This document shows positions 2,248 through 60,260 of a DNA stretch of 64,000 bases, one piece after another (within the stretch, counting starts at the first letter, position 1; each line of letters begins with the position of its first letter). The position numbers and the translations under genes were made by a program. The notes beneath the pieces are model-generated. The model did not search any database. It saw only the letters and a program-made list of their open reading frames with translations, and was not told where the DNA came from. The DNA lies in assembly GCA_000004695.1 (NCBI GenBank), contig CM000152.2:3584001-3648000 (forward strand), written 5' to 3'. This DNA comes from Dictyostelium discoideum. Taxonomy: Eukaryota.

Positions 2248-2814
2248 ATGTTATCAGAATTTTTCAACAGTTTAGCATCATTTTTTAGTAATATATTCTC
2301 ATTATTTGAAGGTAAAAAAGATACAAGAATATTAATGATTGGACTTGATGGTGCAGGTAAATCAACACTTTTATTTAAATTAAAATTGGGTGATGTAGTT
2401 TTAACCATTCCAACCATTGGATTCAATGTCGAAACTATTGTATATAAAAATTTATCAATGACAGTTTGGGATGTAGGTGGTCAACATAAAATTCGTGCAT
2501 TATGGAAACACTATTATCATGGTACAAATGCAATCATCTTTGTAGTTGACAGTACTGATCGTGAAAGAATGGATGAAGTTAAAGAGGAAATTGATAATCT
2601 TTTAATCCAAGATGAATTAAAAGGTATACAAATATTAGTACTTGCAAATAAACAAGATATGAATAATGCAATGAATACCGCAGAAATTGTAAACTCTTTA
2701 AATTTAAATTCAATTAAAGATAGAAAATGGTATGTCCAACCATGTAGTGCCATTAGATCAGATGGTATATATGAAGGATTTGATTGGGTAGCAAATTCAC
2801 TCAATAATAAATAA
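2248..2814 (+). CDS. ARF-family small GTPase (Arf/Arl-like), intact single-exon 188-aa protein
   Basis: The ORF carries a G1 P-loop [10 protein letters not shown]3 WDVGGQ, G4 NKQD and G5 CSA. Four decayed paralogues in the window align to it. Confidence 0.9.
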
Positions 2815-3079
2815 ATAAATAATCAAATAAAAGCCTTATATGTTAGTCAGTAAAAATACAAGGCTTTACTGACTAATATACAGTAAAAATAAATAAAGAT
2901 TAATAATTTTTTTTTTTTTTTAATAAACACTTATTTATTGATTTATTTTTTATTTTTTATTTGTTTTTTTTTATTATTTTTTTATTTTTTTTGTTTTTTT
3001 GGTTTATTTATTAATTTATTCGTTGTATTTTTTTTTTTTTTTTTGATTGTTTAATTAAACTACACAACTGACAGATGAT

Positions 3080-5805
3080 TTACTGGTTGATGGTGAAGGA
3101 TGAGAGCACCAACAGTATCACCAACACAAACAATTGAAATACCTGCAATTGCCCACCTGATAGTTTGGATGATCTACCGTTTGATGATGGAGGAGATAAT
3201 GGTAATTGAATTTCTTCAATTTTAACATCATAATGGAATGATGTTGAGCTAAATTGGAGATATAATACTCCTGATGTTTCATTAACAAATGAATTTGAAT
3301 GGCATGACAAACAATCGGTACTATTTGTAATATCAGTTTCATTTGAACTTAGTTTTGGGTTACTATCATACAATGTCTCATTTGGTGATAAACTGCATTG
3401 CAAATTACATGAAAGAGATACATTTGTTGATGAAACTACCAAACTTGCATAAATAATACCTGATAAACTAACACCACCAACTGATATTGAAATACCATCT
3501 TTATTATTTTTAATGGTTGGAATAACTGTAATCATTGGTTTTAAATATGTTAATATTGCATTTGGTCCCAAATCTTCTCCAATATATGTTGAAACAGAGA
3601 GTTGACTCTCTTTACAATCAGCTCTAACTATTAAAATCTTTTCATTTTGAACAATTATTGTAGTGTTTTTATAATTTGCTAATACTTTAACTTTGAATTC
3701 ATCTCCATTTGACAATAAATTCTTACCAGAAACTGTGATAAAACCTCCACAAGCAATTGTTTTATTATCCTTATTAATTATACCATAAATAACAGGTGGA
3801 AATTTTAAATTAAATAATGATTCCATTTTAATTCCATCCACTGTAATATTAATTGGACCATTTTCATAGGAGTTCAATGTTTTAATAGTTAATTGATTAT
3901 TTGTTAATGTTAGAATTTCTGATGAAATATCATTACCATTGAAATAAACTTTAATATATGATATTGAGTTACCGAAATTATTTCCATAAAATGTAATATT
4001 ATATTGACCTTTAGAAAATTTACGATTCTCAATATTTGGTGGAGCATACGAATATTCATCACTAATTGTATCTGAATTTAATTGAAAAATGAATTGTTTA
4101 TTGATACCAGTGCCATATGGTGTTGAGCATGTTGTTACATAGAAACTAGAATTTGAATATTGTAATGATGGTGTTGAACATTGAGTAGATGATGATGAAT
4201 TACCAACTGTAATACTTGGTTGTGATGATGAACTAATTGGACAATCCATATAATATATTTCAATATTTAATGAACCGTTTGAAAGATTTGGTCTATTGAT
4301 TACATTTATTAATAGTGATGATGCTGAGATTGAAATTGTATTTGAGGTCATATTAGAACCAACCAATTTCACTCGAGTGAAATTAATATTAAATGTACTA
4401 CATCTTAAAAGAGGTAATTTAAATGTCAAATTCTTTTCATCAGACGATACATTTAATTGGTCAATTTTAATATTATCATTAATTCCATTACCATATAATT
4501 GAACGAATGATTCTTCATTTTTACCAAAATGTGTACCAATTAATGTAACAAAACCATTTGAATATGATCCACTTGATAACGTTGGAGTATTATATGTTAA
4601 TGTTACACTATGAGGATTTATTGAATTACAACCACCGAAATTAACGTTAACTGGTAAATTTTTACCACCATTTTGATTTGGATCTAATTTACATTTTAAT
4701 TCATTTGTATTTGATTTAATATATGTACATTGTTTATTACCAATTGTAATTGATGGAGTAAATGATGAATTTAAAGTAGAAAATAATTTGTCTCCTTGAA
4801 TTGTTACAATACCATCGGAATAATTTGATACTGATGATACTGATATAATTAATGGTGGGAAACAATGAGTATAATTCTTTTCAGCCGGGATTTCATTTAC
4901 CTTAACACTAATTGAAATTGGGCCTAGATCAGGTCTATTAACGTTATTCACTTGAATTTGTGTATGATTTACTGAAATAATAAAATTTGTTTGCTTAATA
5001 TCATCAAAATAAACCTCTACCAAGCTTTTATCTGTAAAGAAGTTATCACCATTAATTGATAATATTAGGTACCCTCCGTCAAAAAAAGTACTTGATATTT
5101 TAGGTGATTCGTATGAAAATGGAAAAAGATTATCCCCAGTTTCATCAAAGGCAAATTCAAAATATCCAGAGCCTGGTGGAACTACTACAGTAATATTATT
5201 ACAGTCAAAAGATGGATCAGAGAAATTACCTTTAACAACAAAAGATGTCATATAATCAAATGTAGTTAGAATGTGATTTGGACCACCCCTAGATCTTAAA
5301 TAATTACCAGTAATTACTATATCACCTCCAGATGTTTTTGGTTTATTACTATATTTCAAATTAGTTACAAATGGATAATCTAAAGATGAAAGATCAAATG
5401 AACACTCTTCAACTGGACTTGATACTTCTCTTGCACATACCTTACTTTCTATACTACCCCATAATCTTGAAAATGGCTCATCTGAATGGAATGAACAATG
5501 TCTCCTATTACCAATAACTAGACTACAATTAAAATAATTTGGTGCCATTTCATATCTTGGTGTTGTTTCGTTTTGATACAAAATTAAACGGGTTGGGTAT
5601 GATCGAAAACTTTCAAAAGTTATTGAAAATGATTTTTCATCAAATATTACATCTTTGAAAAATAAATTAATTGAATAAATAACATAAACAAATTATTTAT
5701 TAAAATATTATGATACTTACCTACTGACATTGGACGACCAACTGAATGTCCTGATTTAAAAATTGAGAATAAAAATAAAATCAGTAATATTATTTTCTTT
5801 TCCAT
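3080..5805 (-). CDS. Tgr-family, tgrC-like type I membrane glycoprotein with IPT/TIG repeats, 885 aa. Structure is join(5721..5805,3080..5652), with a GTAAGT intron at 5653..5720.
   Basis: Exon 1 encodes the signal peptide [29 protein letters not shown] (phase 1). Exon 2 is an 833-aa open frame with repeated CGG...ITI/TG.NF IPT-like motifs and many N-glycosylation sequons. A C-terminal TM helix ([13 protein letters not shown]) is followed by a short tail. The gene is paralogous (about 60-70% identity) to 46672..49406. Confidence 0.8.
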
Positions 5806-7953: not shown

Positions 7954-9099
<1,146 letters not shown>

Positions 9100-17582: not shown

Positions 17583-18075
17583 ACCTAAAAAAGATTTTGA
17601 ACAAGTCTATCACTGGATTTCTAGTTTCTCTGTAATACCAATAATAACAAGACGAATAGTTACACTAGCATCGTAGCAAAACCTTTGATTACCATAGAAT
17701 CAGAGATTAAAAATGGGTCAATATTCTCTTGTACTTGACCTTTCTTAATTGGGTCATATTCAGCAGTGATTGATGATTCATCATAAGTCATGTTGATAAT
17801 CAGCGTTAGCATGTAAAGCAACTTCAATTGATCTAATAGAATAAAGCATTTCTAGTGGTACAACATTCTTTGCTAATTAAACCATCACAAGCGGTTTCAT
17901 GATTTTCAAATACCACAGCGATAGATCTTTTCAATGATACATTTCGACAGAATTGGTTATCATATTTCAAGAGGGCACACTCTTCCAAAGGTTTCAATAC
18001 TTTTCAAACACCGATTGTGATGATTATAATTTTCTCTTTATTAAATTGGATAACTCTTCAATCATCATTCTCCAA
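17583..18075. mobile_element. Interspersed repeat X, about 0.5 kb, GC-richer, no long ORF. Unclassified.
   Basis: Matches the reverse complement of 22829..23455 (which has an extra internal segment) and the internally deleted copy at 42285..42345. Confidence 0.45.
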
Positions 18076-19666
18076 TTTTTGAAAATAAAAAAACAAAATT
18101 AGTAAAAATAATTAATTTATTTGTTCATTCATTTATTTTATTTATTTATTAATTTAATTTTTTTTTTTTTTTTTATTTTTATTTTTTTTTAAAAAAAAAA
18201 AAACAACCTACATTCATATGATATGGTGAACTTTTTACTTGTTTTACTATTTTGGTTGACCATATCCCCTGAATTATTTTGATTGGACTAAAAAAAAAAA
18301 ATAAAAAAAAAAAATAAAAAATTGTGAATGATAAATATTAAATATATTATTTTTTTTTTTTTTTTTTTTTAAATAAATAATAATTTAATACAATGTGGTA
18401 ACAATTGTGAATAAAAAAATAATAATTAATTCATTTTATGGTCAAACATCAAAAAATAAAAAATAAAAAAAGATCTGGCCAATTTTTTTTTTTTTTAACG
18501 TTGCGATAACTTTTTTTTTTTTTGATTTTTTTTTTTTTTTTTTTTTTTGATTTTTTTTTTTTTGATTTTTTTTTTTGCTTTTTATAAACTTTTTTTTTTT
18601 TCTCAACGTTTTCTGTATAAATTTTTTAAAAAATTGTTGGTGCAGTTAATTAATAAATAAAAAAATATAAAAAAAAAAAATTTTAGATTATTAATTGTTT
18701 TCTTTTTTTATTTTTATTTATTTTTTTTTTTAAAAAGCTCATTATTTTCTTTAAAAGGATTATAATGAGAATTGGATGGGTGGGAGGGGGTTATATTACC
18801 TATTTTTTAAGAAGATTTACTTTGTTATACCTTTTCTTTCAATGGTAACTATTGATAAAAAAATAAAATTATAATAATAAAATTAAAATTCAAATATTAA
18901 TTTTTTTTTTTTTTTTAATTTTAAAGATTAGTTTATGGTAGAGAAAACTTCCTAAAGAGCAACAAAGGTTCTGATTGGATAAACTTCAATTTACGGCAAT
19001 GGTACTTTAAAGTTTCCAAAAAGATTGTCCCAAAAGGTACGGCAATGGTGCTATTGGAACAAAAATATAACCAGCAACAATAAAAAAAAAATAAAAAATA
19101 AAAAAAAAAATAAAAAAAACTATTTCTTCTTGTGTTTGTTTTATTTATTCCTTTATTACTATACATTTTTTTTATATACCTCTTTGTTTTATTATCTTTT
19201 TTATCATTAAATTAGTGATATAAATCAAATAATAGTTTTATTTTTTTTTTTTTTTTGTTTTTTTTTTTATTATTTTTTTTTTTTTTTTATTACTATACAC
19301 ACCAAATGTGTTGTGTCTTTTCATTTTTCAAACCAACAAATACTGCATTTGCAATAATCTTTTTAATTATGTTGTGTTTATTTTTTTACATTACCAAAAA
19401 TTACTATTTCACCCAAACAGTGGTTGGTAGTGTTGTTATTTTTTTTACTTATATTTTTTTATTTTTTTATTTTTTTAATTTTTTTTTTTATGTGAGAATT
19501 AAATTAAAATACAAAAAAAAAATAAGAATAAAACCATTTTTTGTATATTTTTTCTATTTTCCCACGAAATCACAGAATTGTTGACCCCCAATGAGTGGTT
19601 TTTGTTTTTATAATTTTTTATTTTTTTTTATTTTTTTCAATTCATACACACAAAATAAAATCATAA

Positions 19667-21492: not shown

Positions 21493-21550
21493 TAAATAAA
21501 TAATACAGAAATTAAGTAAATAAAATTCGGATGGAACCTACATAAATTTA

Positions 21551-22033
21551 TTATTGTCCTTGATTTGGTTGGTTTGGTTGGTTTGCTGCTGCTGCTGCTG
21601 CTGCATCATCCTCAGCGAATAACTGGGCGATGAGATTCATGTCAACTAAATCGTGAGTATTAACTGGTGTTAAAACTGCATAGTTAATATCAATATGGGG
21701 ATATTGTTTTTGTGTATATAATATGGCCTCGTCAACTTCAGCTCTGATATCCCAACCTGCTTGATCAGATCTTGCGAAAAAAATAGCAGCGGTGTCACCC
21801 ATTTTTGGGTACCATATTGGGTTTCTATTGAGTCTTGCTTTAAATCTTTTTCTGGCATTTGTTATGTAATTAGGTGAGGCGTAATCATAATTGGCACCGT
21901 TATTGGTAGCAGCCAAGGCAAGTACAGTTTGTGGTATTTGATCTAAATCTCTAATTTTTATTGCTTTTGTGACAATTACTTTTGAACAATACACACCATT
22001 GTCATTATATAAACTTGGGTTGATTGACGACAT
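21551..22033 (-). CDS. Hypothetical 160-aa protein, copy 1 of a duplicated gene
   Basis: Intact ATG-to-stop ORF with coding-like composition. It is nearly identical to 30124..30606 (2 aa differences) and ends in poly-Ala and NQP repeats. Confidence 0.65.
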   Translation of the reverse strand: MSSINPSLYNDNGVYCSKVIVTKAIKIRDLDQIPQTVLALAATNNGANYDYASPNYITNARKRFKARLNRNPIWYPKMGDTAAIFFARSDQAGWDIRAEVDEAILYTQKQYPHIDINYAVLTPVNTHDLVDMNLIAQLFAEDDAAAAAAANQPNQPNQGQ

Positions 22034-22608
22034 TCTTGAAAAAATAAAAAAATTAAAAAAAAAAAATTTTTTTTGAAATGATTTTTATCTAAAATATTTC
22101 GAGATTTTATAAAAAAAATTAAACTTTTTTTGATTTTGCAGCGTCACCACTACTATGTAAAATATTTACAATGCATTTACAATGCAATTACATTGTGATT
22201 TGTCTTTAAGTAAATTAACGTATCCCATATTAATTTTATCTATAATCAGAGAGATATAAAACTAATTTTTTTTTTTTTTTATATCTAAAAACTAGGAAAA
22301 AATATTAAAAAATAAAAATAAAAAAATCTTTTTAATTAAAAATATTTATTCGGTCATTCATTTTTCTTTTTTTTTTTTAAAAAAAAAACAATAAATAAAT
22401 AAAGGAAAAAAAGAAATTTATGAAACTTAAAAAAAAAAAGTAAAAAAGTTTTTTTTGGAATTTATTTTTTTTTTTTTTTTATATTTATAATTCAACAATA
22501 AACAAAATCAACAACATAATGTCTAAATGATCAAATAATTCTCTGGGTGAAGATATGGTCAACCAAAATATAAAACAAGTAAAAAAAGTTCAATATAGAT
22601 GTAAGTTG

Positions 22609-22639
<31 letters not shown>

Positions 22640-22828
22640 GAAAAAATAAAAACAAATAAAAAATAAATAAAAATAAAAAATAAATAAAATAAAAAAAAAA
22701 AAAATAAATAAATAAAATAAATAAATAAATAAATAAATAAATAAATTAAAAAATTAATGTATGAATTAGTAAATAAATAAATTAATATTTTTACTAATTT
22801 TTTTTTATTTATTTTCAAATTAGAGAAT

Positions 22829-23455
22829 GATCATTGAAGAGTTATCCAATTTAATAAAGAGAAATTTATTATGGTCACAATCGGTGTTTGAAATGTATTG
22901 AAACCATAGAAAGGGTGTACCCGCTTGAAATATGACAACTAATACTCGAAATGTACCATTGAAAAGAGCTATCGCTATTGTATTTGAAAATCGTGAAACC
23001 ACTGGCGATGATTTAATTGGCAAAGAATGTGTACCACTAGAAATGGTTTAATCTATTCGATCAATAGAAATTGCTTTACATGTTCTCGCTGATTATAAAC
23101 ATGACCTATGATGAATAATCGATCACTGCTGAATGTGACCCAATTAAGAAAAGTCAAGCATAAGAGAATATGACCCATTCTTAATCTCTGGTTCTATGGT
23201 AATCAAAGGTTTTGGTACTATGTTAGTCACAGCCGTTGGTGAAATTATAATAATTTCATTCAATAGTAAACAAGTTAGCCAAAATCAACAAAAATGTTAA
23301 ATTATGTTACACTTTGAATTATACAAATTCATTATTAGTTTTAGCAAGTGAAAACTCCATTCGAGACAAAACAAGATAATATTGGTGTTGTTATTATTGG
23401 TATTACAGAGAAACTAGAAATCCAGCGATAGACTTGTTCAAAATCTTTTTTAAGC
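22829..23455. mobile_element. Repeat X copy (reverse orientation relative to 17583..18075), inserted in the ARF upstream region
   Basis: This segment is absent from the paralogous sequence at 42285, which retains only the two X termini. Confidence 0.5.
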
Positions 23456-23524
23456 CAATACAACGCTCAATTAAATTATTATTTTTTAAAATCACATATT
23501 CACAACTATACAGTCAATAATCAA

Positions 23525-23900
23525 ATGGTCGTACACCACCAGCTGGTGGTCAGTGACCTAATATGAGAAGACCGCAGTCTACAAATATCTAGCGAACACT
23601 GACCCATTATTGTCAAACGGCCGTCGGACACCAGCCTTTTAATTCATTACCACCTGGCATTGGCAAAAGTGATCTATAAGTTAAAAATTTTTAACTTATA
23701 GATCTATAAGTTAAAAATTTTTTTTAAATTGTTTAAAAAAAAAATAAAAAAAAAAATTAATTAAATTTTCTAAAATACATTTTATACAGTTTTATTTACT
23801 GTTGTAGGGAATTTTTTTTGAAATTTCGCTTTCTAAACGGCAGTGAATTTTTACACTAAAATACACTGTTTATACCTTTATTTATTAAATTGAATTAATA
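23525..23900. mobile_element. Repeat modules Y and Z carrying a solo 78-bp TIR (23789..23866) of the TTAA-type element. A 34-bp perfect palindrome lies at 23659..23692.
   Basis: Y matches 10020..10150 and Z matches 10230..10360. The solo TIR is identical in sequence to 30791..30866. Confidence 0.45.
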
Positions 23901-24518
23901 AATGTATAACTTTTTTTTATTTTTTTTAATAAATTTTTTTTTTTTTTTTTTTTTTTTATATGGATTGATGTATAAACAAAATAATTCAAAATTGTAAAAT
24001 TAATTATTAAAATTAAAAATAAAAATAATAAAAAATAATAAAAATTAATAATTAAAATTAAAAATAAAAATAATAAAAATATGAATTTTATTACTAAATC
24101 TTTTTTTTTTTTTTTTTTTAATTTTTATTCCCATTTTTCCTTTTTTTTTTTTTTTTTTTAGATTTACTGTACTTTACTTTATATTTGTCGTCAATGCATC
24201 ACTTTGAAAATTTAAAATACATAACAAAAAAAAAAAAAAAATTAAACAGTGCAGGAATTGATTTTTCAATTAAAAAAAAAGAAAAATCTCACTATTTCCA
24301 TGATTATTGTTTCTATTAATACTATAACCCCATTATTATTACCATTTATATTAATATTATTATAAATTGTTTTTTTTTTTTTTGTTCACCCCCAATAAAT
24401 TTATCACAAAATATGTCCTCATTCATTAGTTATTAAAGAAACTAAAAATAAAATAAAACAATAAATATAATTAAAATAACAAAATAAAATAAAATAAAAT
24501 AAAATAAAATAAAATAAA

Positions 24519-24614
24519 ATGTTATTAGAAATTCTCAACAGTTTAGCATCATTTTTTAGTAAGATATTCTCATTATTTGAAGGTAAAAAAGATATAAGAA
24601 AATTATTGATTGGA
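24519..24614 (+). pseudogene. ARF 5' fragment (first about 30 codons), fused to the antisense 3' part of a tgrC-like pseudogene
   Basis: [32 protein letters not shown] matches the ARF N-terminus, including the conserved (aaaat)n leader. The junction falls at a shared TTGGA. Confidence 0.7.
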
Positions 24615-26770
24615 ATTTCTGAAATCATTGGTTTTATACGTCAATGTTGTACTTGGTCCCTGGACGAACTCCTGTAGTATTTTTATTATTTGATTTTACA
24701 TTAACTTTGAATTCTTTGTCACTTGTCAATAAATTCTTACCAGAAACTGTGATATGACCTCCACAAGTAAGTGTTTTATTATCTTTATTTGTTATATGAT
24801 AAATGACAGGAGGTAATGTTAAATAAAAGAATGAATCCATATAATTACCATCTACAGTAATATTAATTGGGCCATTTTTATATGAATCCAATATTTTAAT
24901 AGTTAATTGATGATCTTTTAATTCTAGAATTTCTGATGAAATATCACTACCATTTAAATAAACTTTAATTAATGATGTTGAATTACCAAAATTATTACCA
25001 TGTAATTCAATATTAGTTCCATCATCTGAAATTGTACGATTCTCAACTTCAGGTGGTGCATATGAGAATTGATCACTGACTGTCTCTGAGTTTAATTTGA
25101 ATATAAATTGTTTATTAATACCAGTGCCATATGGTGTTGGACATGTTGTTTTATAGTAACTAGAATTTGATGATGGTATTGAACATAGTGAGGCTGATGA
25201 TGAATCACCAACAGTAATACTTGGTGCTGGTGAACTAATTGTACAATCCATATAAAATATTTCAATATTTAATATTCCATTTGATACTGTTGGTCTATTG
25301 GTTACATTTACTGATAATGATGCAGAAATTGAAAGTGTGTTTGCGGTAATATTAGAACGAGTGAAATTACTATTAAATGATCTACATCTTAAATGAGGTA
25401 ATTCAAATGTTAAACTCTTTTCATCAGATGATACATTAAATTTGCTAATGTTTGTATTATTAATTCCATCACCTATAATTGAATGGATGATTCGTTATTT
25501 GTACCAAGATTTGTACCAATTAATGTAACGATACCATTTGAATATGACCCACTTGATAATGTTGGAATATTATATGTAAATAATACACCATTAGGACTTG
25601 TTGAATCACAACCACCGAAATTAACTTTAACCGGTAAGTTTTTACCACCCAGTTCATTTTTTTCTTATTTACATTCCAATTCAGTTGGTGTTGATATAAT
25701 AAATGTACATTGTTTATCACCAATTATAATTGATGGTGTCAAAGATGAATTTAAAGTCGAAGATAGTTTTTCACCTTTAATTGTTACAATACCATCTAAA
25801 CGATTTGATAATGATGATATTGATGTTATAATTGCTGGGAAACAATGATTATAATTCTTTTCAATTGAGACACCATTTACGGTAATACTAACAGACATTG
25901 GGCCAGGCGCAACTCTATTAATGTTACTCACTTGAATTTGTGTATGATTTACTGAAATAATAAAATTTAGTTGAGTAATACCATCAAAATAAACCGTAAC
26001 CAACTTTTTATTTGTAAAGAAGTTATCACCATTAATTGTTATTATTTGTTTCAATGAGTCAAAAACGGTACTTGATATTTTAGGTGATACGTATGAAAAT
26101 GGTACTTTAAATACACCAGTTTCATCATAGTACAACCTAAAAGTTCCAGATCCTGGTGGAAATATTACAGTAATATTATTTAGAGTAGATCCATCAGAGA
26201 AATTACCTTTAACAACCAAAGGTTTAGAAGTATCAATGGAATTTAGAAGGAAATTAGGACCACCAAATAATCTTAAATATGAGCCAGTAATGACCCTATC
26301 TTCACCAGATGTTTTGGTTTTTTACTATATTTCAAATTGGATGCTTTTGGATAATATATTAAAGGCGAAACATCAAATGTACAATCCTCAACAGTATTTG
26401 ATATATCTCTAGCACATATCTTACTGTCTATACTACCCCATAATCTTGAGAATGGTTCATCTTAATGGAATAAACAATGCTCTCTCCATCAACTAGGGTA
26501 CAATTGAAATAATTTGGTGCCATTTCAGTTCTGGGTTCTTTTTCGTTTTTATACAAAATTAAACGGGTAGAATATGGGAGATTACTATTAAAAATAAATG
26601 TAAATGATTTATCATCATATATTACATCTAATAAAAAAAATTAATTACATAAACAAATTATTATAAATAATTAAAAATTTAATGATAATACCTATTGGTG
26701 ATGGACGATACATTGAATATCCTGATTTAAAGAACAAAAATAAAATCAGTAATATTATTTTCTGTTCCAT
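24615..26770 (-). pseudogene. tgrC-like pseudogene: 3' truncated with multiple frameshifts. The exon-1 signal peptide and intron are retained.
   Basis: Fragments 24634..25251 and 25665..26219 align to the intact paralogue 46672..49406. Exon 1 ([27 protein letters not shown] plus gtaagtat) lies at about 26696..26770. Confidence 0.8.
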
Positions 26771-26926
26771 TTTTATCAATAATTTTTTTTATTTTGAACT
26801 TGGCTTTGTCAATAATTTTTATAAAAGAAAATTAAAAAAGAGAAATTTAATTATTTTAGGAAATTTTAATTTTAATTAAATAAATAGATAAAAAAAGATA
26901 AAAAAAAATTAATAAATGTAGAAAAA

Positions 26927-26961
<35 letters not shown>

Positions 26962-27194
26962 ATAAATATATAAATTAAAAAAACAAAATAAAATAAAAAA
27001 ATAAATAATAATAATGAAAAAAAACCATAAAATTCTAAAAAGAGGCTATCTGGTGAATGAGTTTGAGTGTGGTGTTTCATTTATATGAAAAGGGAGTGGT
27101 TTTTTTTGTTGAATGGGGTATTTTTTTTTATGTTAAACCCCTTTTTCTAAAAATAAAAAATGTTTTTTTATGTAAATTTTTTATTAGGAAGTGT

Positions 27195-28120
27195 GAATTA
27201 TATAATGAAACAGTTGTCAATGTAAAAATGGATACGGTTGGAAGAAAATATTATTTAAATCCACTCGAGTTTCCTTACAAGAATCTGCTATGCGATTTAA
27301 ATATTTTATTTAAATTCACACCAGAAATCCCATAATTCTCAAATATACCCACTACAGGTGGAGAATTCGGGTTCACCTTCAACTTTCCTTGCAACTATAA
27401 GCGAACCGCCAAATCAATATATAAAACAATATATAAAGAAACATCTATTTTAAATCTCAGTTTCGATACAAGCAAAAATCAGTTCGTTACTTACTTGGAT
27501 CCAGGGTGTGGTCCTTTATATTTAATTAGTGATAATATCACCATTTTCAGTACAACAATTGAAAGTGGTGCCATACCCAATGTACCAATTCTCGATGATG
27601 ATAAAGGTATTTTAACTATTCAAGGTAGTAATCTCTACAACACGTCAATTAAAATTTATTTCAACTAACATTGTGAAAGACACCAACCCTATTGGTACAA
27701 TAGATGCTTCCCATTCTTCTGTCACATTCTCAGTTGAAGAATTTTTAACTCCAAATAATTGGACAATTGAAGTCTCAATATGTGGCTCATTTTATAAAAG
27801 CTATTCCTACCCATATGGATTACCGGTTCTCACTAAAATGGAAGGGGGTACTTAATGATAATGGTGGTAATATGGTATTTACTGGAAAGCATTTAAGACC
27901 AAAACCAATATTGACAAAAAGAAAACTGCAACATTGGAAGAACCTGGATTTTTTATTGAAAATAATAATACCATTTTTATATTCCTACCAAATAATACTC
28001 AACCTGGTTTTATGAACCTTGTTGTTGGTGACGGTGGTCGTGAAATATTTACATCTCCATGATATAATTATCGCTCCAACTATTACTGCTGGCCAAACCT
28101 TCAAATCAAGTGGTAATAAA
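27195..28120 (+). pseudogene. tgrB-like pseudogene: signal peptide lost, frameshifts and stops, internal deletion
   Basis: Aligns to exon 1 and exon 2 of 49930..52846 (..VVNVKMDTVGRKYYLNPLEFPYKNLLCDLNI..). It is divergent from the tgrC-like pseudogene, with the conserved promoter motif between them. Confidence 0.7.
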
Positions 28121-29875: not shown

Positions 29876-30123
29876 TAATGTAAATTTTATTTATTTTTTT
29901 TCTATTTTTTTATAATTATTTTAGTAATTGTTTATTTTAATAGTAATATTCAAATTTGATGAATAACAAAAAAAGACACATAATGTTTTACTCTTTAGAA
30001 AGGGAATTTTTATTTTTATTTTTTTTATTTTTATTTTTTTTTTATATTTAATTTTAAGGTTTTATAAATTCACAATGAGACCTAGTATTATTATATAAGA
30101 GTTAAATTAAATAAACTAATTTA

Positions 30124-30606
30124 TTATTGTCCTTGATTTGGTTGGTTTGGTTGGTTTGCTGCTGCTGCTGCTGCTGCATCATCCTCAGCGAATAACTGGG
30201 CGATGAGATTCATGTCAACTAAATCGTGAGTATTAACTGGTGTTAAAACTGCATAGTTAATATCAATATGGGGATATTGTTTTTGTGTATATAATATGGC
30301 CTCGTCAACTTCAGCTCTGATATCCCAACCTGCTTGATCAGATCTTGCGAAAAAAATAGCAGCGGTGTCACCCATTTTTGGGTACCATATTGGGTTTCTA
30401 TTGAGTCTTGCTTTAAATCTTTTTCTGGCATTTGTTATGTAATTAGGTGAGGCGTAATCATAATTGGCACCGTTATTGGTAGCAGCCAAGGCAAGTATAG
30501 TTTGTGGTATTTGATCTAAATCTCTAATTTTTATTGCTTTTGTGACAATTACTTTTGAACAATACTCACCATTGTCATTATATAAACTTGGGTTGATTGA
30601 CGACAT
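30124..30606 (-). CDS. Hypothetical 160-aa protein, copy 2 of the duplicated gene
   Basis: Identical to 21551..22033 except V14E and V36I. The 3' flank carries a small inversion relative to copy 1. Confidence 0.65.
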   Translation of the reverse strand: MSSINPSLYNDNGEYCSKVIVTKAIKIRDLDQIPQTILALAATNNGANYDYASPNYITNARKRFKARLNRNPIWYPKMGDTAAIFFARSDQAGWDIRAEVDEAILYTQKQYPHIDINYAVLTPVNTHDLVDMNLIAQLFAEDDAAAAAAANQPNQPNQGQ

Positions 30607-30790
30607 TCTTGAAAAAATAAAAAAATTAAAAAAAAAAATTTTTTTTGAAATGATTTTTATCTAAAATATCTCGAGATTTTATAAAAAAAATTAAACTTTT
30701 TTTGATTTTGCAGCGTCACCACTACTATGTAAAATATTTACAATGCATTTACAATGCAATTACATTGTGATTTGTCTTTAAGTAAATTAA

Positions 30791-40905: not shown

Positions 40906-42047
40906 CGATTGGTGTTATAATCTGAAGTTTATTAAATTTCTATTTGAATCCATAACCTATTCTTATTTTGTAACTGATTCAGGTTTGGAACATTATTAAA
41001 ATAGAGTTTGTGAAGTTAAATAATTTATCGCTGAAGTTGTAGTTCAAATCTGACAACCAAAATTTATATTTTTTTTTAATTTTTTATTAGTTTTTTAACA
41101 TCGATTTAATTTTATTTATTTTTAATATGAATTTAATATAGATAAATAGACCATGATTAGATTGATTCGTTTTATGGTTGTCAAATTTTTTTATTTTGTT
41201 AACGTTGTGATACTTTTTTTTTTTTTTTTTAGGTTTCTTGTTCTTTTTATAAATTTTTTTTTATTTATTTCAATTTCCAGAATTTTATTTTTTCAACAAA
41301 AATAGGATTCACTCCAATAAAATATATTTTTTAAAAATATATATTTCTTAATTCTTACAATTAATAAGTTGAAAAAAAAATTAAAAATTAAAAATTAAAT
41401 CCAAATAAAAACTATTTTTAGAAATAAAAAAAATAAAAATAAAAATTAAATAATTAAGATTAAAAATTAAAAACACAAAAAAAATTTATACTTTTTTTAA
41501 TTTTTCTTTTTTTAATTATTTTAAATAATTTAAAAAATAATTTTGAATGTGACCAACACTTGGTCCCGTTGATGTTGCTGTTTTTGCTATTAATTTTGAT
41601 TTATTTTTTTTATTTTTTTTAAAGTTTATTTAAAATTTCCTCATTTATGTTTATCACTTTTATTTTTTTTTTTTACATATAATTTTTTTTTTCAAGAGAA
41701 GTAATTTATTTTTTTTTTTATATCTAAAAACTAGGAAAAAATATTAAAAAATAAAAATAAAAAAATCTTTTTAATTAAAAATATTTATTCGGTCATTCAT
41801 TTTTCTTTTTTTTTTTTAAAAAAAAAACAATAAATAAATAAAGGAAAAAAAGAAATTTATAAAACTTAAAAAAAAAAAGTAAAAAAGTTTTTTTTGGAAT
41901 TTATTTTTTTTTTTTTATATTTATAATTCAACAACAATAATCAAAATCAACAACATAATGTCTAAATGATCAAATAATTCTCTGGGTGAAGATATGGTCA
42001 ACCAAAATATAAAACAAGTAAAAAAAGTTCAATATAGATGTAAGTTG

Positions 42048-42078
<31 letters not shown>

Positions 42079-42749
42079 GAAAAAATAAAAACAAATAAAA
42101 AATAAATAAAAATAAAAAATAAATAAAATAAAAAAAAAATAAATAAATAAATAAAATAAATAAATAAATAAATAAATAAATAAATTAAAAAATTAATGTA
42201 TGAATTAGTAAATAAATAAATTAATATTTTTACTAATTTTTTTTTTTTTTATTTTCAAATTAGAGAATGATCATTTGGTATTACAGAGAAACTAGAAATC
42301 CAGCGATAGACTTGTTCAAAATCTTTTTTAAGCCAATACAACGCTCAATTAAATTATTATTTTTTAAAATCACATATTCACAACTATACAGTGTCAATAA
42401 TCAAAGCGCTTTGAAAATTTAAAGTACATAACAAAAAAAAAAAAAAAAATTAAACAGTGCAGGAATTGATTTTTCAATTAAATGAAATTAAAAAAAGAAA
42501 AATCTCACTATTTCCACGATTATTGTTTCTATTAATACTATAACCTCATTATTATTATTACCATTTATATTAATATTATTATAATTATTTTTATTATTTT
42601 TTTTTTTTTGTTCACCCCCAATAAATTTATCACAAAATATGTCCTCATTCATTAGTTATTAAAGAAACTAAAAATAAAATAAAACAATAAATATAATTAT
42701 AATAACAAAATAAAATAAAATAAAATAAAATAAAATAAAATAAAATAAA

Positions 42750-43245
42750 ATGTTATTAGAAATTCTCAACAGTTTAGTATCATTTTTTAGTAAGATATTC
42801 TCATTATTTGAAGGTAAAAAAGATATAAGAATAATAATGATTGGACTTGACCGTGTAGGTAATCCAATACTTTTATATAAATTAAAAGTAGGAGATGTTG
42901 TTTCAACCATTCCATCCATTGGATTCAATGTTGAACTATTGAATATAAAAATTTAAATGATAGTTTAGGATGTAGGTGGCCAGTATTAAATTGGCACATT
43001 ACAGAAACACTATAATCATGGTTCAAATGAAATCATCTTTGTAGTGGATAGAACTAATTGTGAAAGAATTAATCAAGTTAATGAAGAAGTTGATAATCTT
43101 TAATTCAAGATGAATTAAAAGGTAAATTCTTTAAATTTAAATTCAATTAAAGATAGAAAATGGTATATTCAACCATGTAGTGCCATTAAATCAAATGATA
43201 TATATGAAGGATTTGATTGGATTGCAAATTCACTCAATAATGAAT
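42750..43245 (+). pseudogene. ARF-family GTPase pseudogene (internal stops and an internal deletion)
   Basis: Aligns to 2248..2814. GKST is lost, stop codons follow NIKI, and a central block is deleted. The 5' leader (aaaat)n is conserved. Confidence 0.8.
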
Positions 43246-43559
43246 AAATAAATGAAATAAATTAATAAATAAAAACCTTGTATATTTATATATATATATA
43301 TATATAGTAAAAATAAATAAATAAATAAATAATGTTAAATTAAATTTTTTATTTTATCTTTATTTATTTTATTTTAAGTTTTTTAAGTTTTAATTTTACA
43401 CATATGTGATTTGTGATTTTAAATTCACATTTTCTTTTTATTTTATTTGAAACAGTTTTTTACACCAACTTCTTTTAATTTTTTATGATTTTCTTTTGCA
43501 ATAATCATCCTAACAATATTTTTAAAAAAAAAAAATAAAATAATTGGTTAGTTTATATT

Positions 43560-44700
43560 TTTTTAATAAAAAAAAAAATAATTTCTTACAATGAGTTGAT
43601 TTTAATTTGATTTCAAAAAAGAGAATAGAAATTTGAAAATATGAAGATGGTTCTACTATTGATAAAAGTGATGGTGATGATTGAGTGAAGAAGCAGGACA
43701 ACTGTGATAAGCAGTCATTGATTCTGTATCATCGATTGCCAATAAAACTTGATGTTGTCTTTTGTTTGATTTACATTCTTTACTTCATCACCATCATCTT
43801 GTTCCATTTCTTGATAATCTAAAACTACTTTTTTTTTATCAAGATTTGTGAGATTTTCTAATTATTCCTTTGTGAATAGTTCTTTTTGATTTAAATCATT
43901 CAATTTATCATCTTCGCCATCTTGTTGTTGATCTTTTTCAAGTTTTCTTTTTCTTTTTCTTTTTCTTTTTCTTTTTCTTTTTCTTTTTCTTTTTCTTTTT
44001 GTTTTTGTTTAAATCGATCTTGTTTAAATTTTGATGTTGATATCTTTTTATTTTCGGTTGTTGTTAAGAAGAACGGTTCTTCCACTCATTACTTGAATCA
44101 CCCATTGATATATATTGATATGGATCAACTTGTTTTTGTTTCTTTGGTGGTCGTTGTGCGCTTGATTGTGGTGGTGGTAGTGGTTGAAATTTAAGAATTT
44201 TTAAGGGAACCTGTTTGTATCATTTTCAGATGGAATTGACTGGGCCATAAAACTATTGTTATCAGCATTATCTAGATTATATTAATCTTTCATGTATTCA
44301 TAAGTGTTGAAAATTTTGATTTACTAGCAGGTGTTTTATCTTTTAACGCCTAATGATTGCCCTGAATCTTTTGGTGTTCATCTTGTTCATTGTAGTTAGT
44401 GATGTTTGATCTTCTTCTGGTTGTTCTTTCTCTGGTTAATCAACTTCTAAATTGACTGAATCAATTTTTGTTGTGGATTTGATCAATTGGTACATTCTTT
44501 GGTGCTTGTAAACTACACCATCAGCTTTTAAGGCTGGTTGATAAGAGATAACCCATTTCCTCAACTCTTGGGATTAATCCATTTACAAAATTACTAATGT
44601 TATAATTCTTCTGAATGATTCAACATTTATTCTTCTGTTAAATCATTCATAATATCAAAATCTTTACGCATCTATTTATATATTTATAGAAAAAAAAAAA
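43560..44700 (-). pseudogene. Degenerate pseudogene or repeat remnant, many stops
   Basis: 43480..43600 is similar to 9640..9760 (..attggttagtttatatttttt..cttacaatgag). 43900..44700 is similar to the reverse complement of 62300..63100. It contains a (TTTTTC)n run at 43935..43990. Confidence 0.35.
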
Positions 44701-45525
44701 TTTATAATTATTAATGTTATATTTGAAAAAAAAAAAAAATTATTAAAAAAATAAAAAAAAACTTACTTTATCATTTAAACCAGTTCTGGAATTGAACAAA
44801 TTGTTTGTTTTACACTTCTCATTTTAACTTCAGATTTAAGTAATGGTTGAGTTAAATCGGCGATTTTGTATATTGGATATTTCTTTTGGTAGTATTCCAA
44901 AAATATAGTTGTACCCTCAATAATATCGGTTACTTTTGAATTTGGACCTTTACATAATATAACGAGTTACAACAACTGGTGTTTAATAAGTTTTACCCAT
45001 TAATGAATATTCCATTGATCTCATAAACTATTTTGATTTTTAAAAAGTATTAAAAAAAAATAAAATAAAATAAAAAGATGAATATGGTTATACAAAAATT
45101 AAAAACTTACAGATTTAATTAAAATATAAAAGAGTTGAAATTATTGATTTATCATTGACTTGTATCATTTATCTCTTGCTATTTACGCTGGTGAGAAATT
45201 GGTTGATTTTGGTTTCTGGAACAGTTGCAATATCTTGGATATCATCATTATCATCTCCAACTAAATCTTTTCTTGAAATTCTTACATCTTGTGGAGCAGC
45301 CGAGGTCTAAACATAAACTGTAAAAAAAAAAAATTGAAATAATAAAAATGAAAATATATATAAACAAATTCTCAATAATAAATAAATAAATAAATAAAAG
45401 CCTTGTATATAGTAAAAAAAAAAAATGAAAAAAAAAAAAAAAAAAAAAAAAAATTTTTTATTTATATAAAAAAAAAACCATATATTTTCACATTTTAAAA
45501 TTTTTTTTGGCGCTTTTTTTTTTCA

Positions 45526-45561
<36 letters not shown>

Positions 45562-45990
45562 AGGTTAATGAAATTTCATGTTCAACACTTTTTAATATAC
45601 CACTAGATAACCAATATAAAATTGAATTAACAATAATAAATCAACGACTGAAAAAAAAAAAATGCAAATGCACTTATACGTTTTAGGTTGTAGTTTGCTT
45701 ATATGCAAAGTCAGTAAAATTTATCAGTGTTCTTTATTTAGTATAAAAGTTGTAATTAATAATTAATAATTAATAATTAATAATATATATATATATATTA
45801 TAATATATTAATCAATTTCATTCAACCAAACCAAAACAATCGCCCAAAGAGGTGGTAATGGTCCTCATTCATTAGTTATTAAAGAAATAAAAAATAAAAT
45901 AATAAAATAAAACAAATAAATATAATTAAAATAATAACAAAATAATAAAATAAAAAGCAATAAAATAAAATAAAATAAATTAAAAATAAA

Positions 45991-46492
45991 ATTTTATCAG
46001 AATTTTCAACAGTTTAGCATCATTTTTCTGTAAGATATTCTCATTAGTTGAAGGTAAACCAATACTTTTATATAAATACAAAATAGGTGATGTTGTTTCA
46101 ACCATTCCAACCATTGGATTCAATGTTGAACTATTGAATATTAAAATTTATCGATGACAGTTTGGGATGTAGGTAGTGAGTATTAAATTGACACATTATA
46201 GAAACACTATTACCATGGTTCAAATGCAATCATCTTTGTAGTGGATAGTACTGATCGTGAAAGAATTAGCCAAGTTAAAGAAGAAATTGATAATCTTTTA
46301 ACTCAAGATGAAATAAAAGGTATACAAATATTAATATTTGCAAATAAACAAGATATGGATAATGCAATGAATACTGCAGAAATGTGAACTCTGTAAATTT
46401 AAATTCAATTAAGGATAGGGATCAACCATGCAGTGCCATTAAATCACCACACGGTATATATGAAGGATTTGATTGGGTACCCAATAATTAAT
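45991..46492 (+). pseudogene. ARF-family GTPase pseudogene (ATG lost, deletion of the P-loop region, stops)
   Basis: Aligns to 2248..2814. The start ATG is mutated to ATT and GLDGAGKST is deleted. Confidence 0.8.
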
Positions 46493-46671
46493 AAATAAAT
46501 GAAATAAACAAAATAAATAAATAAAAGCCTTGTATATATAGTAAAAATAAAATAAAGATATAATAAAAAATTTTAATTTAACATTTATTTATTTATTTAT
46601 TTATTTTATTTTTAGTTAAGTTTTAATTTTACACATATGTGATTTGTGATTTTAAATTTACATTTTTTTTT

Positions 46672-49406
46672 TTAAAATTTTTTACCTATAAATTTTTTCA
46701 CACGAAAAGGTATTTTAAAGTAATAGGCAAGAGCACCGATAGCAAGAGCACCACCAACACTACCAATTGTAGAACCTATTATTAAACCATTTGATGGTTT
46801 GGATGATTTAGTTTCAACATCTCTTTGACTAACGTTTGGTGATGGAGATAATTTAATTTCTTCAATTGTGACATTATATTGAAATGATGTTGAGTTAAAT
46901 AGGAGATATAATACTCCTGATGTATTTTTCACACTTGAACCGGAATGGCATGATAAACAATCAGTATTACTATTTGTAATATTAGTTTCACTTGAATCAC
47001 TATCATCAAGTATTTCATTTGGTGATAAACTACATTCTAAATTACATGAAAGAGGAACAGTTTCTGATGAAACTGTTAAGCTTGCATTGAGAATATCTGT
47101 AAAACTATAACCACGAATTATTGCTAAAATACCTTTTTCAATTTTATTTTCAATGGTTGGAATTTCTGAAATCATTGGTTTTATATAGGTCAATGTTGTA
47201 CTTGGTCCTGAACGAACTCCAATGAATGTTGTAACAAAGAGTGAACTCTCTCTACTTTCATCTCTAACTATTAATATCTTTTCATCTTGAGCAAATACTG
47301 TGGTATTTTTATTATTTGATTTTACATTAACTTTGAATTCTTTGTCACTTGTCAATAAATTCTTACCAGAAACTGTGATAAGACCTCCACAAGCAAGTGT
47401 TTTATTATCTTTATTTGTTATACGATAAATGACAGGAGGTAATGTTAAATAAAATAATGAATCCATATAATTACCATCTACAGTAATATTAATTGGGCCA
47501 TTTTCATATGAATCCAATATTTTAATAGTTAATTGATGATCTTCTAATTCTTGAATTTCTGATGAAATGTCACTACCATTTAAATAAACTTTAATTAATG
47601 ATGTTGAATTACCAAAATTATTACCGTGTAATTCAATATTAGTTCCATCATCAGAAATTGTACGATTCTCAACTTCTGGTGGTGCATATGAGAATTGATC
47701 ACTGACTGTCTCTGAGTTTAATTTGAATATAAATTGTTTATTAATACCAGTACCGTATGGTGTTGGACATGTTGTTTCATAGTAACTAGAATTTGATGAT
47801 GGTATTGAACATGGTGAGGCTGATGATGAATCACCAACAGTAATACTTGGTGCTGATGAACTAATTGTACAATCCATATAATATATTTCAATATTTAATA
47901 TTCCATTTGATACTGTTGGTCTATTAATTACATTTACTGATAATGATGCTGAAATTGAAAGTGTTTTTGCGGTAATACCAGAACGAGTGAAATTAATATT
48001 AAATGATCTACATCTTAAATGAGGTAATTCAAATGTTACACTCTTTTCATCAGATGATGATACATTAAATTGGCTAATGTTTGTATTTTTAATTCCATCA
48101 CCATATAATTGAATGGATGATTCGTTATTTGTACCAAGATTTGTACCAATTAATGTAACGATACCATTAGAATATGATCCACTTGATAATGTCGGAATAT
48201 TATATGTAAATGATACACCATTAGGACTTGTTGAATCACAACCACCGAAATTAACGTTAACTGGTAAGTTTTTACCACCCAATTCATTTGCATCCAATTT
48301 ACATTCCAATTCAGTTGTTGTTGATTTAATAAATTTACATACTTTATCACCAATTGTAATTGATGGTGTCAATGATGAATTTAAAGTTGAAGATAATTTT
48401 TCACCTTTAATTGTAACAATACCATCTAAATGATTTGATACTGATGATATTGATGTTATTATTGCTGGGAAACAATGAATATAATTCTTTTCTATTGAGA
48501 CCTCATCTACGGTAATATTAACAGACATTGGACCGGGATCAACTCTATTATAGTTATTCACTTGAATTTGTTTATGATTTACTGAAATGATAAAATTGGG
48601 TTGGTCAATACCATCAAAAGAAACCTTAACCAAGTCTTTATCTGTAAAGAAGTTATCACCATTAATTGTTATTATTTGTTTTGATGAGTCTGAGACAGAG
48701 CTTGATATTATAGGCGATTCGTATGAAAATGGTACAGGATTATCCCCAGTTTCATCATAGTACAACCTAAATTTTCCGGATCCTGGTGGAAATGTTACAG
48801 TAATATTATTACAGTCAAAAGATGGATCAGAGAAATTACCTTTAACAACAAAAGGTTTATTTACATCAATGGAATTAATAAGGAAATTAGGACCACCAAA
48901 TAATCTTAAATATGAGCCAGTAATGACTATATCTTCACCAGATGTTTTTGGTTTTTTACTATATTTCAAATTGTATACTTTTGGATAATATACTAAACCC
49001 GAAGCATCAAATGTACAATCCTCAACAGTATTTGATTTATCTCTAACACATACCTTACTGTCTATACTACCCCATAATCTTGAGAATGGTTCATCTGAAT
49101 GGAATAAACAATGTCTCTCTCCATCAACTAGAGAACAATTGAAATAATTTGGTGCCATTTCAGTTCTGGGTTCTTTTTCGTTTTTATACAAAATTAAACG
49201 GGTAGAATATGGGAGATTACTATTAAAAATTAATGTAAATGATTTATCATCATATATTGCATCTAATAAAAAAAATTAATTACATAAACAAATTATTATA
49301 AAGAATTAAAAATTTAATGATACTTACCTATTGGTGTTGGAGGATTCATTGAATATCCTGATATAAAGAACAAAAATAAAATCAGTAATATTATTTTCTT
49401 TTCCAT
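46672..49406 (-). CDS. tgrC1: Tgr-family, tgrC-like type I membrane glycoprotein, 889 aa. Structure is join(49328..49406,46672..49262). It is the partner of the divergent tgrB-like gene.
   Basis: Exon 1 encodes [27 protein letters not shown] (GTAAGT donor). Exon 2 is an 839-aa open frame with IPT/TIG-like repeats, the [15 protein letters not shown], and the 14-aa tail [14 protein letters not shown]. The symbol is tentative. It is chosen because this is the only intact divergent B/C pair in the window, and that architecture is known for D. discoideum tgrB1/tgrC1. Confidence 0.75.
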
Positions 49407-49597
49407 TTTTATCAATGATTTTTTTTATTTTGAATTTGGCTTTTTAATAATTTTTATAAAAGAAAATTAAAAAAGAGAAATTTAATTATTTTAGGAAAAT
49501 TTAATTTTTATTAAATAGATAAAAAAAGATTAAAAAAAAAATTAATTTATAATAAATGTAGAAAAAAAAAATAAAAAAATAAAAAAATAAAAAAATA

Positions 49598-49628
<31 letters not shown>

Positions 49629-49929
49629 TAAATAAATATATAAATTAAAAAAACAAAATAAAATAAAAAAATAAATAATAATAATGAAAAAAAACCATAA
49701 AATTCTAAAAATAGAGGCTATCTGGTGAATGAGCTTGAGTGTGGTATTTCATTTATTTGAAAAGGGGTATTTTTTTTTTTGTTAAACCCCTTTTTCTAAA
49801 AATAAAAAAAAAATTTTATTTGGTAGGGGCAAATCATTTTTTTTTTTTATTATTAATAAAAATAAATTTTTTTTTATTTTTTTTATTTTTATTATTGTTT
49901 AAATTTATAATGCTACAAGTTTTACAAAA
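49407..49929. promoter_or_regulatory. Bidirectional intergenic promoter region shared by the divergent tgrC-like and tgrB-like genes. It contains a conserved GC-richer motif at 49688..49800.
   Basis: There are 523 bp between the two start codons. The motif attctaaaaatagaggctatctggtgaatgagcttgagtgtggt..gttaaacccctttttctaaaaata is conserved at 27019..27155 and 56750..56850 upstream of the other tgrB-like copies. Confidence 0.5.
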
Positions 49930-52441: not shown

Positions 52442-52479
<38 letters not shown>

Positions 52480-59331: not shown

Positions 59332-59893
<562 letters not shown>

Positions 59894-60105
59894 ATAATAA
59901 AAAAAAAGTTCATATATTTTTATTATTATTTTTTATGTGTTTGTTTATTTATTTACTTATTTATTTTATCATTTAATTAATTATTTATTAGTCCGTTTGC
60001 TTATTAGTTTATTTATTTATTTTTTTATTTATTTTTTTATTTATTTATTTTAAAAGTTTTAATTTTATAAAATGTGATTTTAAATTTACATTTTCTTTTA
60101 ATTTT

Positions 60106-60228
60106 TTAAAAGTTTTTTCTTAAATATTTTTTTGCGCGACTTATTATTCTAAAAATAAAGAAACAACCAATGATAGAACAACTAGAAGCAATACCAATAA
60201 ATACAAAAGCTGCAGTTAAACCAGCTGA

Positions 60229-60260
<32 letters not shown>

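Follow-up and report, generated by a model that had tools for sequence, protein, structure and literature searches.

The window examined here is a 64,000-nucleotide stretch of Dictyostelium discoideum AX4 chromosome 3 (contig CM000152.2, positions 3,584,001 to 3,648,000 of the forward strand), which is AT-rich, with a GC content of 23%, and holds the tgrB1/tgrC1 allorecognition locus together with its surrounding debris. The pseudogenes tgrC_ps1 and tgrB_ps lie head-to-head about 20 kb downstream of tgrB1/tgrC1, the functional pair, and at the 3' end of tgrC_ps1 the 5' stub of an ARF (arr) gene, with its upstream leader, runs straight into antisense tgrC sequence. In window coordinates, the segment that carries this chimeric junction, referred to below as copy 2, contains the following parts:

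24202–24518, plus strand: (AAAAT)n leader with an upstream region of ARF type, matching 42409–42749 upstream of the ARF pseudogene c3
24519–24614, plus strand: ARF (arr) 5' stub, beginning at the ATG and 32 codons long, ending just before the P-loop
24519–24677, plus strand: chimeric open reading frame (ORF) of 52 codons, ARF codons 1–32 followed by 20 codons of antisense tgrC
24610–24614: breakpoint microhomology TTGGA, shared by the two parents and kept as a single copy in the product
24615–24672, minus strand: last retained piece of tgrC_ps1, approximately TgrC1 codons 707–727, in which 2 bp have been deleted and 1 bp inserted and a premature stop occurs at 24634–24636
24672–24673: second junction, where 78 bp corresponding to tgrC1 47221–47298 have been deleted in frame, with 1-bp microhomology
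24673–26770, minus strand: body of tgrC_ps1, a non-processed tgrC1 duplicate with its start codon at 26770
27198–28117, plus strand: tgrB_ps, the decayed, frameshifted divergent partner of tgrC_ps1, with a 383-bp internal deletion at AAAAC

The genes and pseudogenes with which these parts are compared are:

2248–2814, plus strand: arrK, an exact match to ArrK, with its stop at 2814
3080–5805, minus strand: tgrC paralogue beside arrK, 885 residues, with its stop at 3080
2248–5805: intact canonical convergent unit formed by these two genes
42750–43253, plus strand: ARF pseudogene c3, with stops and a 65-bp deletion; including an orphan tgrC 3' end, it extends to 43465
46005–46482, plus strand: ARF pseudogene c4, convergent on tgrC1, with frameshifts and a 45-bp deletion
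46672–49406, minus strand: tgrC1 (lagC), 888 residues, read from 49406 to 46672
49930–52447, plus strand: tgrB1, placed by tblastn mapping

Anatomy of the junction

On the ARF side of the breakpoint, blastn aligned 24400–24614 with c3 and its leader (42626–42845) at 95.5% identity (E = 1e-97) and 24434–24614 with the arrK region (2165–2343) at 87%, while the upstream region 24202–24518 is 92% identical to 42409–42749 when gaps are counted and differs from it by 2.2% substitutions. On the tgrC side, 24607–24672 aligned with antisense tgrC1 (47154–47220) at 91% (E = 2e-20) and 24672–24800 with 47298–47426 at 96.9%. The likeness to ARF genes is not confined to the (AAAAT)n leader: 96 coding nucleotides match, and tblastn with residues 1–34 of ArrK recovered the stub at E = 3.6e-10. 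Every ARF copy, both in the window and at five other loci, loses alignment exactly at 24614. The 32 codons of the stub include the ARF-family N-terminal helix region homologous to ArrK and ArrJ, whereas the P-loop (GxxxxGK[ST]), the switch regions, and the NKxD motif are absent from it; ARF homology ends at ...LIG, directly before GLDGAGKS, and the chimeric locus holds no ARF-like sequence beyond that point.

The breakpoint falls on the pentanucleotide TTGGA, whose tgrC1 equivalent is 47157–47161. The overlap can be extended to 10 bases (24605–24614), nine of which agree between the two parents (AATGaTTGGA in ARF and AATGgTTGGA in tgrC1; consensus AATGrTTGGA). Outside these 10 bp, alignment of ARF against antisense tgrC found no homology, which excludes non-allelic homologous recombination and single-strand annealing, and the junction contains neither filler DNA nor a templated insertion. 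A preliminary description of this DNA, made from its letters, had proposed an antisense fusion of an ARF 5' end to a tgrC-like gene at TTGGA, with about the first 30 ARF codons kept, and both points are borne out by the alignments. Its placement of the breakpoint near codon 640 of the tgrC gene was too early: the break lies at I726-P727-T728 of the 888 residues of TgrC1, or at about codon 740 of 885 in the arrK-adjacent tgrC. The tgrC-like gene is indeed a tgrC copy, although its identity as the pseudogene tgrC_ps1, a duplicate of tgrC1, had gone unrecognized and the second, 78-bp deletion, 58 bp from the main junction, had not been noted.

The order and orientation of the joined parts are kept in two paralogous arrangements, c3...tgrC1 (42845 to 47162) and arrK...tgrC (2343 to about 3523). 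In the intact arrK unit the two genes converge, with about 270 bp between the stop of arrK at 2814 and that of tgrC at 3080, as originally described. Because both genes are convergent on one chromosome, a simple deletion suffices to join sense ARF to antisense tgrC without any inversion.

As a result of the joining event, the ARF promoter and leader are now aimed antisense into tgrC_ps1. This arrangement raises the question of a functional fusion, in which the 52-residue chimeric ORF would act as a new peptide or the ARF promoter would drive an antisense RNA across tgrC_ps1 onto tgrC1. Promoter, leader, and ATG have all been kept, and over roughly 1 kb the putative antisense RNA would match tgrC1 with a complementarity of about 97%. 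However, the nearest ARF relative, c3, is a dead gene, no plus-strand gene is called here in the annotation of assembly GCA_054883475.1, and the last 20 codons of the ORF are out-of-context antisense sequence following an ARF part that stops before the P-loop. We therefore regard a function for the fusion as very improbable; the ORF itself is probably meaningless, and it would be a long shot for antisense RNA from the ARF-type promoter to serve as a candidate antisense or small interfering RNA regulator of tgrC1 through the complementary 3' half of its mRNA.

Parent copies and length of the missing sequence

Of the 96 nucleotides that begin with the ATG at 24519, the stub shares all but 4 with c3 and all but 7 with arrK. 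Since c3 is the closer of the two (coding substitutions of 4% compared with 7%) and its upstream flanks differ from those of the stub by only 1–2%, the stub is by these comparisons a copy of c3 at 42750, its closest relative and left parent, and arrK was set aside as a parent. The earlier derivation of the stub from an intact unit of the arrK type is accordingly not upheld.

Copy 2 as a whole is colinear with 41699–51332, its closest paralogous segment, in four blocks:

22260–22835 corresponds to 41699–42275
24202–24614 corresponds to 42409–42845
24607–27111 corresponds to 47154–49781
27194–28109 corresponds to 50049–51332

On this paralogous map, the stretch absent from copy 2 at the junction is 42846–47161, or 4316 bp, and takes in the c3 body, a spacer of 2.4 kb, c4, and the tgrC 3' end. 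An ORF scan of the spacer (43400–45900) revealed no convincing genes. The same two breakpoints lie only about 1.18 kb apart on the arrK unit, so that the deletion of roughly 1.2 kb suggested in the preliminary description holds on that unit and not on the closest paralogous map, where the spacer and c4 are missing as well. Between the first two blocks the reverse is seen: positions 22836–24201 of copy 2 amount to 1.37 kb, against 133 bp (42276–42408) in the paralogous segment. Part of this interval (22696–23227) gives an inverted match to 17664–18190, and an ORF scan of 22836–24201 yielded no convincing gene.

Counting substitutions only, copy 2 diverges from 41699–51332 by 1.0% in the left flank, 2.2% upstream of the ARF stub, 3.4% in the tgrC 3' half, 3.1% in the shared promoter, and 4.1% in the distal part of tgrB (part 2), values that point to blocks duplicated at one time. 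By comparison, c3 and c4 differ from each other by 8.5%, which places their split before the duplication that produced copy 2. By type, tgrC_ps1 belongs with tgrC1, the gene for which c4 is the convergent ARF partner. For its part, c3 retains an ARF-tgrC intergenic spacer and about 22–25 bp of a tgrC 3' coding end (43253–43465), and this relic has the C-terminal type found at two loci of a wild strain (L005 and L008, described below), unlike that of tgrC1. Given this difference in type, c3 was already an orphan, left over from an older unit that has lost the body of its tgrC, rather than the partner of a tgrC1-type gene.

An alternative, shorter history would start from a canonical convergent unit, with a full ARF gene about 130–270 bp from the tgrC stop, in which a deletion of about 1.1–1.2 kb at TTGGA took out no more than the body of the ARF, the intergenic spacer, and the 3' end of tgrC; on this view c3 represents the left part of that unit, copied separately and in part. 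Canonical ARF-tgrC units do recur, at arrJ, arrK, c4-tgrC1, and c5 as well as at the comparison loci L003, L005, and L008, the gap on the arrK unit is of the required size (about 1.18 kb), and the spacer and roughly 22 bp of tgrC 3' end kept by c3 indicate that a c3-type ARF once faced a tgrC. For this history, however, two duplications must have arisen independently and yet, by chance, be colinear with 41699–51332. It also sits poorly with a tgrC_ps1 of the tgrC1 type (3.4% in the 3' half) when c3 and c4 differ by 8.5%, and with the different C-terminal type of the tgrC relic at c3. We consider it possible, though the less probable of the two. On the strength of the divergence ordering and the orphan tgrC 3' relic at c3, we favor a deletion of about 4.3 kb over one of 1.2 kb.

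Microhomology and lesions beside the junction

To judge the 5-bp overlap, all possible breakpoint pairs between ARF c3 and tgrC1 were enumerated as a null. The probability of a microhomology of at least 5 bp is 0.012 for c3 and tgrC1, and 1.15% for arrK and its tgrC partner. Microhomologies of 1, 3, 5, and 7 bp accompany four further internal deletions of the window, among them the 78-bp deletion next to the main junction (1 bp). These comparisons use paralogues as parents and form a small sample; the three deletions that lie elsewhere are:

45-bp deletion in c4: AGGTAAA, 7 bp, null probability 0.0016
383-bp deletion in tgrB_ps: AAAAC, 5 bp, null probability 0.012
65-bp deletion in c3: GTA, 3 bp, null probability 0.084

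The first of these lies exactly between two AGGTAAA repeats, and the ARF copy that carries it, c4, which faces the functional tgrC1, is itself a pseudogene.

The tgrC side of the junction shows an accumulation of small lesions. Three events fall within 66 bp, namely the 78-bp deletion, the loss of 2 bp, and the insertion of 1 bp, after which no indel is found for 750 bp; if indels were uniformly distributed, the post hoc probability of such clustering would be about (66/820)^3, or about 5e-4. Both this crowding and the microhomology at the other deletions are in keeping with a process that is non-homologous and error-prone. The lesions may stem from error-prone repair in the same event, or from decay that set in later, once the C-terminal end had lost its importance. 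Alternatively, the truncated gene may have remained under selection for a while, with only its new C-terminal end free to decay.

The same observations bear on a replicative origin, in which the junction was made in the duplication itself by a template switch from the ARF 5' end into the tgrC 3' region at the microhomology, at a fork or during break-induced replication (of the type termed fork stalling and template switching or microhomology-mediated break-induced replication), so that the missing stretch was never present in copy 2. The microhomology fits such a switch, the small indels and second deletion within 66 bp are the kind of complexity typical of replicative switching, and many discontinuous partial duplications of the locus exist in other strains. 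Its end product, however, is the same as that of a duplication followed by a deletion, the junction lacks any templated insertion, and the ordinary decay of a pseudogene would account for the lesions just as well. We judge this route rather unlikely, although the joint could have formed during the duplication rather than after it.

The junction in an independent assembly and other strains

The region is composed of repeats that are 80–97% identical and hence prone to misassembly, and cross-mapping of short reads within the tgr family has been noted in the literature, so a misjoin of reads from ARF and tgrC copies in the reference had to be considered. The junction segment 24519–24700 (182 bp) is 100% identical in the independent de novo long-read assembly GCA_054883475.1, and the surrounding 20.6 kb show 0 mismatches and 11 indels; copy 2 also carries private substitutions on either side of the junction. 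An assembly artifact is ruled out by the identical junction for all practical purposes. GCA_054883475.1 is probably a Nanopore/Illumina de novo assembly of AX2-214, in which case the junction is presumably older than the split of the AX2 and AX4 laboratory lineages.

Six loci from three other assemblies served for further comparison: L003 from cf. discoideum (GCA_054859235.1), and L004 and L006 (GCA_054859355.1) together with L005, L007, and L008 (GCA_054859385.1) from two wild D. discoideum assemblies. None of the six has an orthologous site, and no undeleted or orthologous allele was found in these strains. This agrees with a published report that 34 kb downstream of tgrC1 in AX4 cannot be aligned with strain OT3A (Holland, Ahmed et al., PNAS 2025, PMC12745789). 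Loci L004 to L008 show other arrangements, including an ARF gene without its 5' end, tgrC fragments beside the spacer labeled 43.7–45.3 kb, and a tgrB fragment fused directly to the 3' end of an ARF gene; neither they nor L003 have the junction seen at 24614. At L008, on a 120-kb contig, an ARF without its first approximately 110 nucleotides is joined to spacer, and a tgrB fragment to an ARF 3' end, at 6413 and 10869.

A truncated tgrC is present at position 12016 of L003, in the cryptic species (ACTFIZ_008739). It encodes 693 residues, has lost about 590 bp (tgrC1 approximately 46816–47407), and has a full antisense ARF gene downstream. Together with the truncated tgrC that partners tgrB1 in EO1089 and EO1176, strains of the cryptic species (bioRxiv 10.1101/2025.10.22.684067), it resembles tgrC_ps1 in lacking the transmembrane (TM) end and in lying beside an ARF gene. 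The breakpoint is a different one and the ARF gene is retained at full length, which indicates that this truncation arose independently of that in tgrC_ps1. C-terminal truncations of tgrC copies have thus arisen independently in different lineages.

The pseudogene pair tgrC_ps1 and tgrB_ps

Like tgrC1, tgrC_ps1 keeps a first exon of 26 codons and the first intron. With TgrC1 as the tblastn query, three frame changes and two in-frame stops were found between 26631 and 24673, so the reading frame is interrupted. Amino acid identity to TgrC1 is 71–96% over the aligned segments (residues 26–680), which span the TIG/Ig_TgrO1 ectodomain; the corresponding gene call in GCA_054883475.1 carries PF24612 (Ig_TgrO1) and a faint hit to PF01833 (TIG). 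Homology stops at codon 727, whereas the TM segment of TgrC1 begins at residue 851, so the C-terminal TM segment and tail are gone. The junction fixes the loss in tgrC_ps1 exactly: the last 161 codons (728–888), including the TM membrane anchor and the stop codon. An old gene model of 577 residues (P0058) ends at the stop 24634–24636, 20 nucleotides short of the junction. In a blastp comparison, this old model comes nearer to the wild TgrC1 allele C0JMP6 (86.8%) than to AX4/LagC TgrC1 (81.8%), a closeness that would fit a role of pseudogene copies as a store of foreign allele types.

The divergent partner, tgrB_ps, is likewise decayed, and a homology search with its conceptual protein returned tgrB1- and tgrB2-type proteins, none of them specifically tgrB_ps-like. 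Together, the two form a decayed duplicate of tgrB1-tgrC1 itself. An origin as a processed, retro-copied pseudogene was ruled out by the retained first exon and intron and by the co-duplication of the shared promoter and the tgrB partner. Directly before the 383-bp deletion in tgrB_ps, 63 nucleotides (27843–27905) are perfectly identical to tgrB1 50678–50740 amid surroundings with about 7% substitutions, and this may be a gene-conversion patch.

The pair is the same object as the tgrC_ps1/tgrB_ps pair already known from the AX4 tgrBC cluster (bioRxiv 10.1101/2025.10.22.684067; PMC12745789), with the same features: a truncated tgrC copy, internal stops, and a head-to-head tgrB fragment, located downstream of tgrC1. 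There, tgrC_ps1 was described as truncated, with internal stop codons, and paired with tgrB_ps (bioRxiv 10.1101/2025.10.22.684067). Neither PMC12745789, from which the terms "arf," "microhomology," "end joining," "chimer," and "ADP-ribosylation" are absent, nor bioRxiv 10.1101/2025.10.22.684067, which was checked for "arf" only and lacks it, mentions the stub, the place of the truncation to the base pair, or a microhomology; the stub may be annotated in dictyBase. What is new here is therefore the base-pair anatomy only, since the two pseudogenes, the truncation, and the unstable nature of the locus are already on record in the literature.

Proposed origin of the junction

Taken together, we think it likely that a segment duplication was followed by a non-homologous joining at TTGGA, which created the 3' breakpoint of tgrC_ps1. 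Colinearity and divergence suggest that the duplicated segment would have comprised the left flank, c3, the 2.4-kb spacer, c4, tgrC1, the shared promoter, and the 5' part of tgrB1. Non-homologous joining in one of the copies would then have removed about 4.3 kb, from codon 32 of the c3-type ARF to codon 727 of tgrC, with the ends joined at the common TTGGA (9 of 10 bases with the extension). While the geometry of this step can be read directly from the alignments, its mechanism would most likely be either microhomology-mediated end joining (MMEJ) of a resected double-strand break or microhomology-primed template switching. The preliminary description had proposed MMEJ, and the simple-deletion geometry, the microhomology, and the absence of long homology agree with that choice, although sequence alone does not separate it from template switching.

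The junction shares with known scars of MMEJ (also termed alternative or theta-mediated end joining) a 5-bp overlap kept once, the lack of long homology and of filler, a deletion geometry, and small mutations nearby. The comparison covers sequence features and not pathway dependence (polymerase theta, PARP, ligase). In Dictyostelium, MMEJ has been surmised only, from CRISPR outcomes.

Several points weigh against this account. A microhomology does not identify an enzyme pathway, coincidence alone would produce one 5-bp overlap with a probability of about 1%, and the clustering of indels was observed post hoc. No allele without the deletion came to light. Since the parents used here are paralogues and not ancestors, both the deletion length (4.3 or 1.2 kb) and the order of duplication and joining are reached indirectly. 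The range of divergence along the duplicate, from 1 to 8%, could moreover reflect gene conversion, which is documented in the tgr family and would weaken the dating.

The tgrBC locus has been described as a hypermutable hotspot of local duplication and rearrangement, with arr genes as frequent passengers, for which non-homologous repair of local double-strand breaks was proposed without junction-level evidence (PMC12745789). The junction described here lies inside the unalignable region, and the same kinds of partial tgrB, tgrC, and arr duplicates are found in the window and at L003, L005, and L008. To that work, the window adds five junctions with microhomologies of 1–7 bp, a small and anecdotal sample. 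These junctions, with 5 bp or 9 of 10 bases at the main one and 1–7 bp at the four smaller deletions, are the footprint that a break-repair model predicts. More speculatively, the recurrent microhomology junctions and nearby indels could be the footprint of a locus-specific error-prone break repair that drives the tgrBC hotspot. As a neutral scar in an annotated pseudogene, and an ordinary one for a hotspot of this kind, the junction carries little weight alone and is of modest mechanistic value.

Neighboring genes and further observations

Exact protein matches on AX4 chromosome 3 were obtained for ArrK, V4 (DDB_G0280533), DDB_G0280661, and DDB_G0280673. An ORF of 839 codons within tgrC1 (46672–49191, minus strand) is 99% identical to LagC AAF72532/TgrC1, its next best matches being wild TgrC1 alleles. 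A further unit, arrJ, is located just upstream of the window. Besides arrK, the window holds four ARF relics: the stub at 24519–24614, c3, c4, and c5. The remaining features are:

21551–22033: V4, vegetative-specific protein, DDB_G0280533
56963–58012, plus strand: tgrB2, placed by tblastn mapping
59332–59887: ARF pseudogene c5, frameshifted
60331–61115, minus strand: tgrC fragment after c5

The last two belong to a fifth unit (59332–61257) downstream of tgrB2, composed of c5, about 420 bp of unassigned sequence, and a minus-strand tgrC copy of which only the N-terminal part is present; it represents another truncated ARF-tgrC unit. Near the other end of the window, a dense short-period tandem repeat (8474–8729) lies within an ORF of 275 codons (7954–8781, minus strand), and L003 has similar arrays at its ends.

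An exact look-up of the V4 neighbor gave no match, and a homology search with V4 returned the AX4 cluster only; like the search with the conceptual tgrB_ps protein, it gave no usable anchor for the orthologous site in other strains. Within the window there are two V4 copies (21545–22218 and 30118–30790), which form direct repeats around tgrC_ps1/tgrB_ps and are 99.4% identical across 674 bp. They are far closer to each other than are the tgr duplicates between them (1–8% divergence), which suggests a recent duplication or gene conversion.

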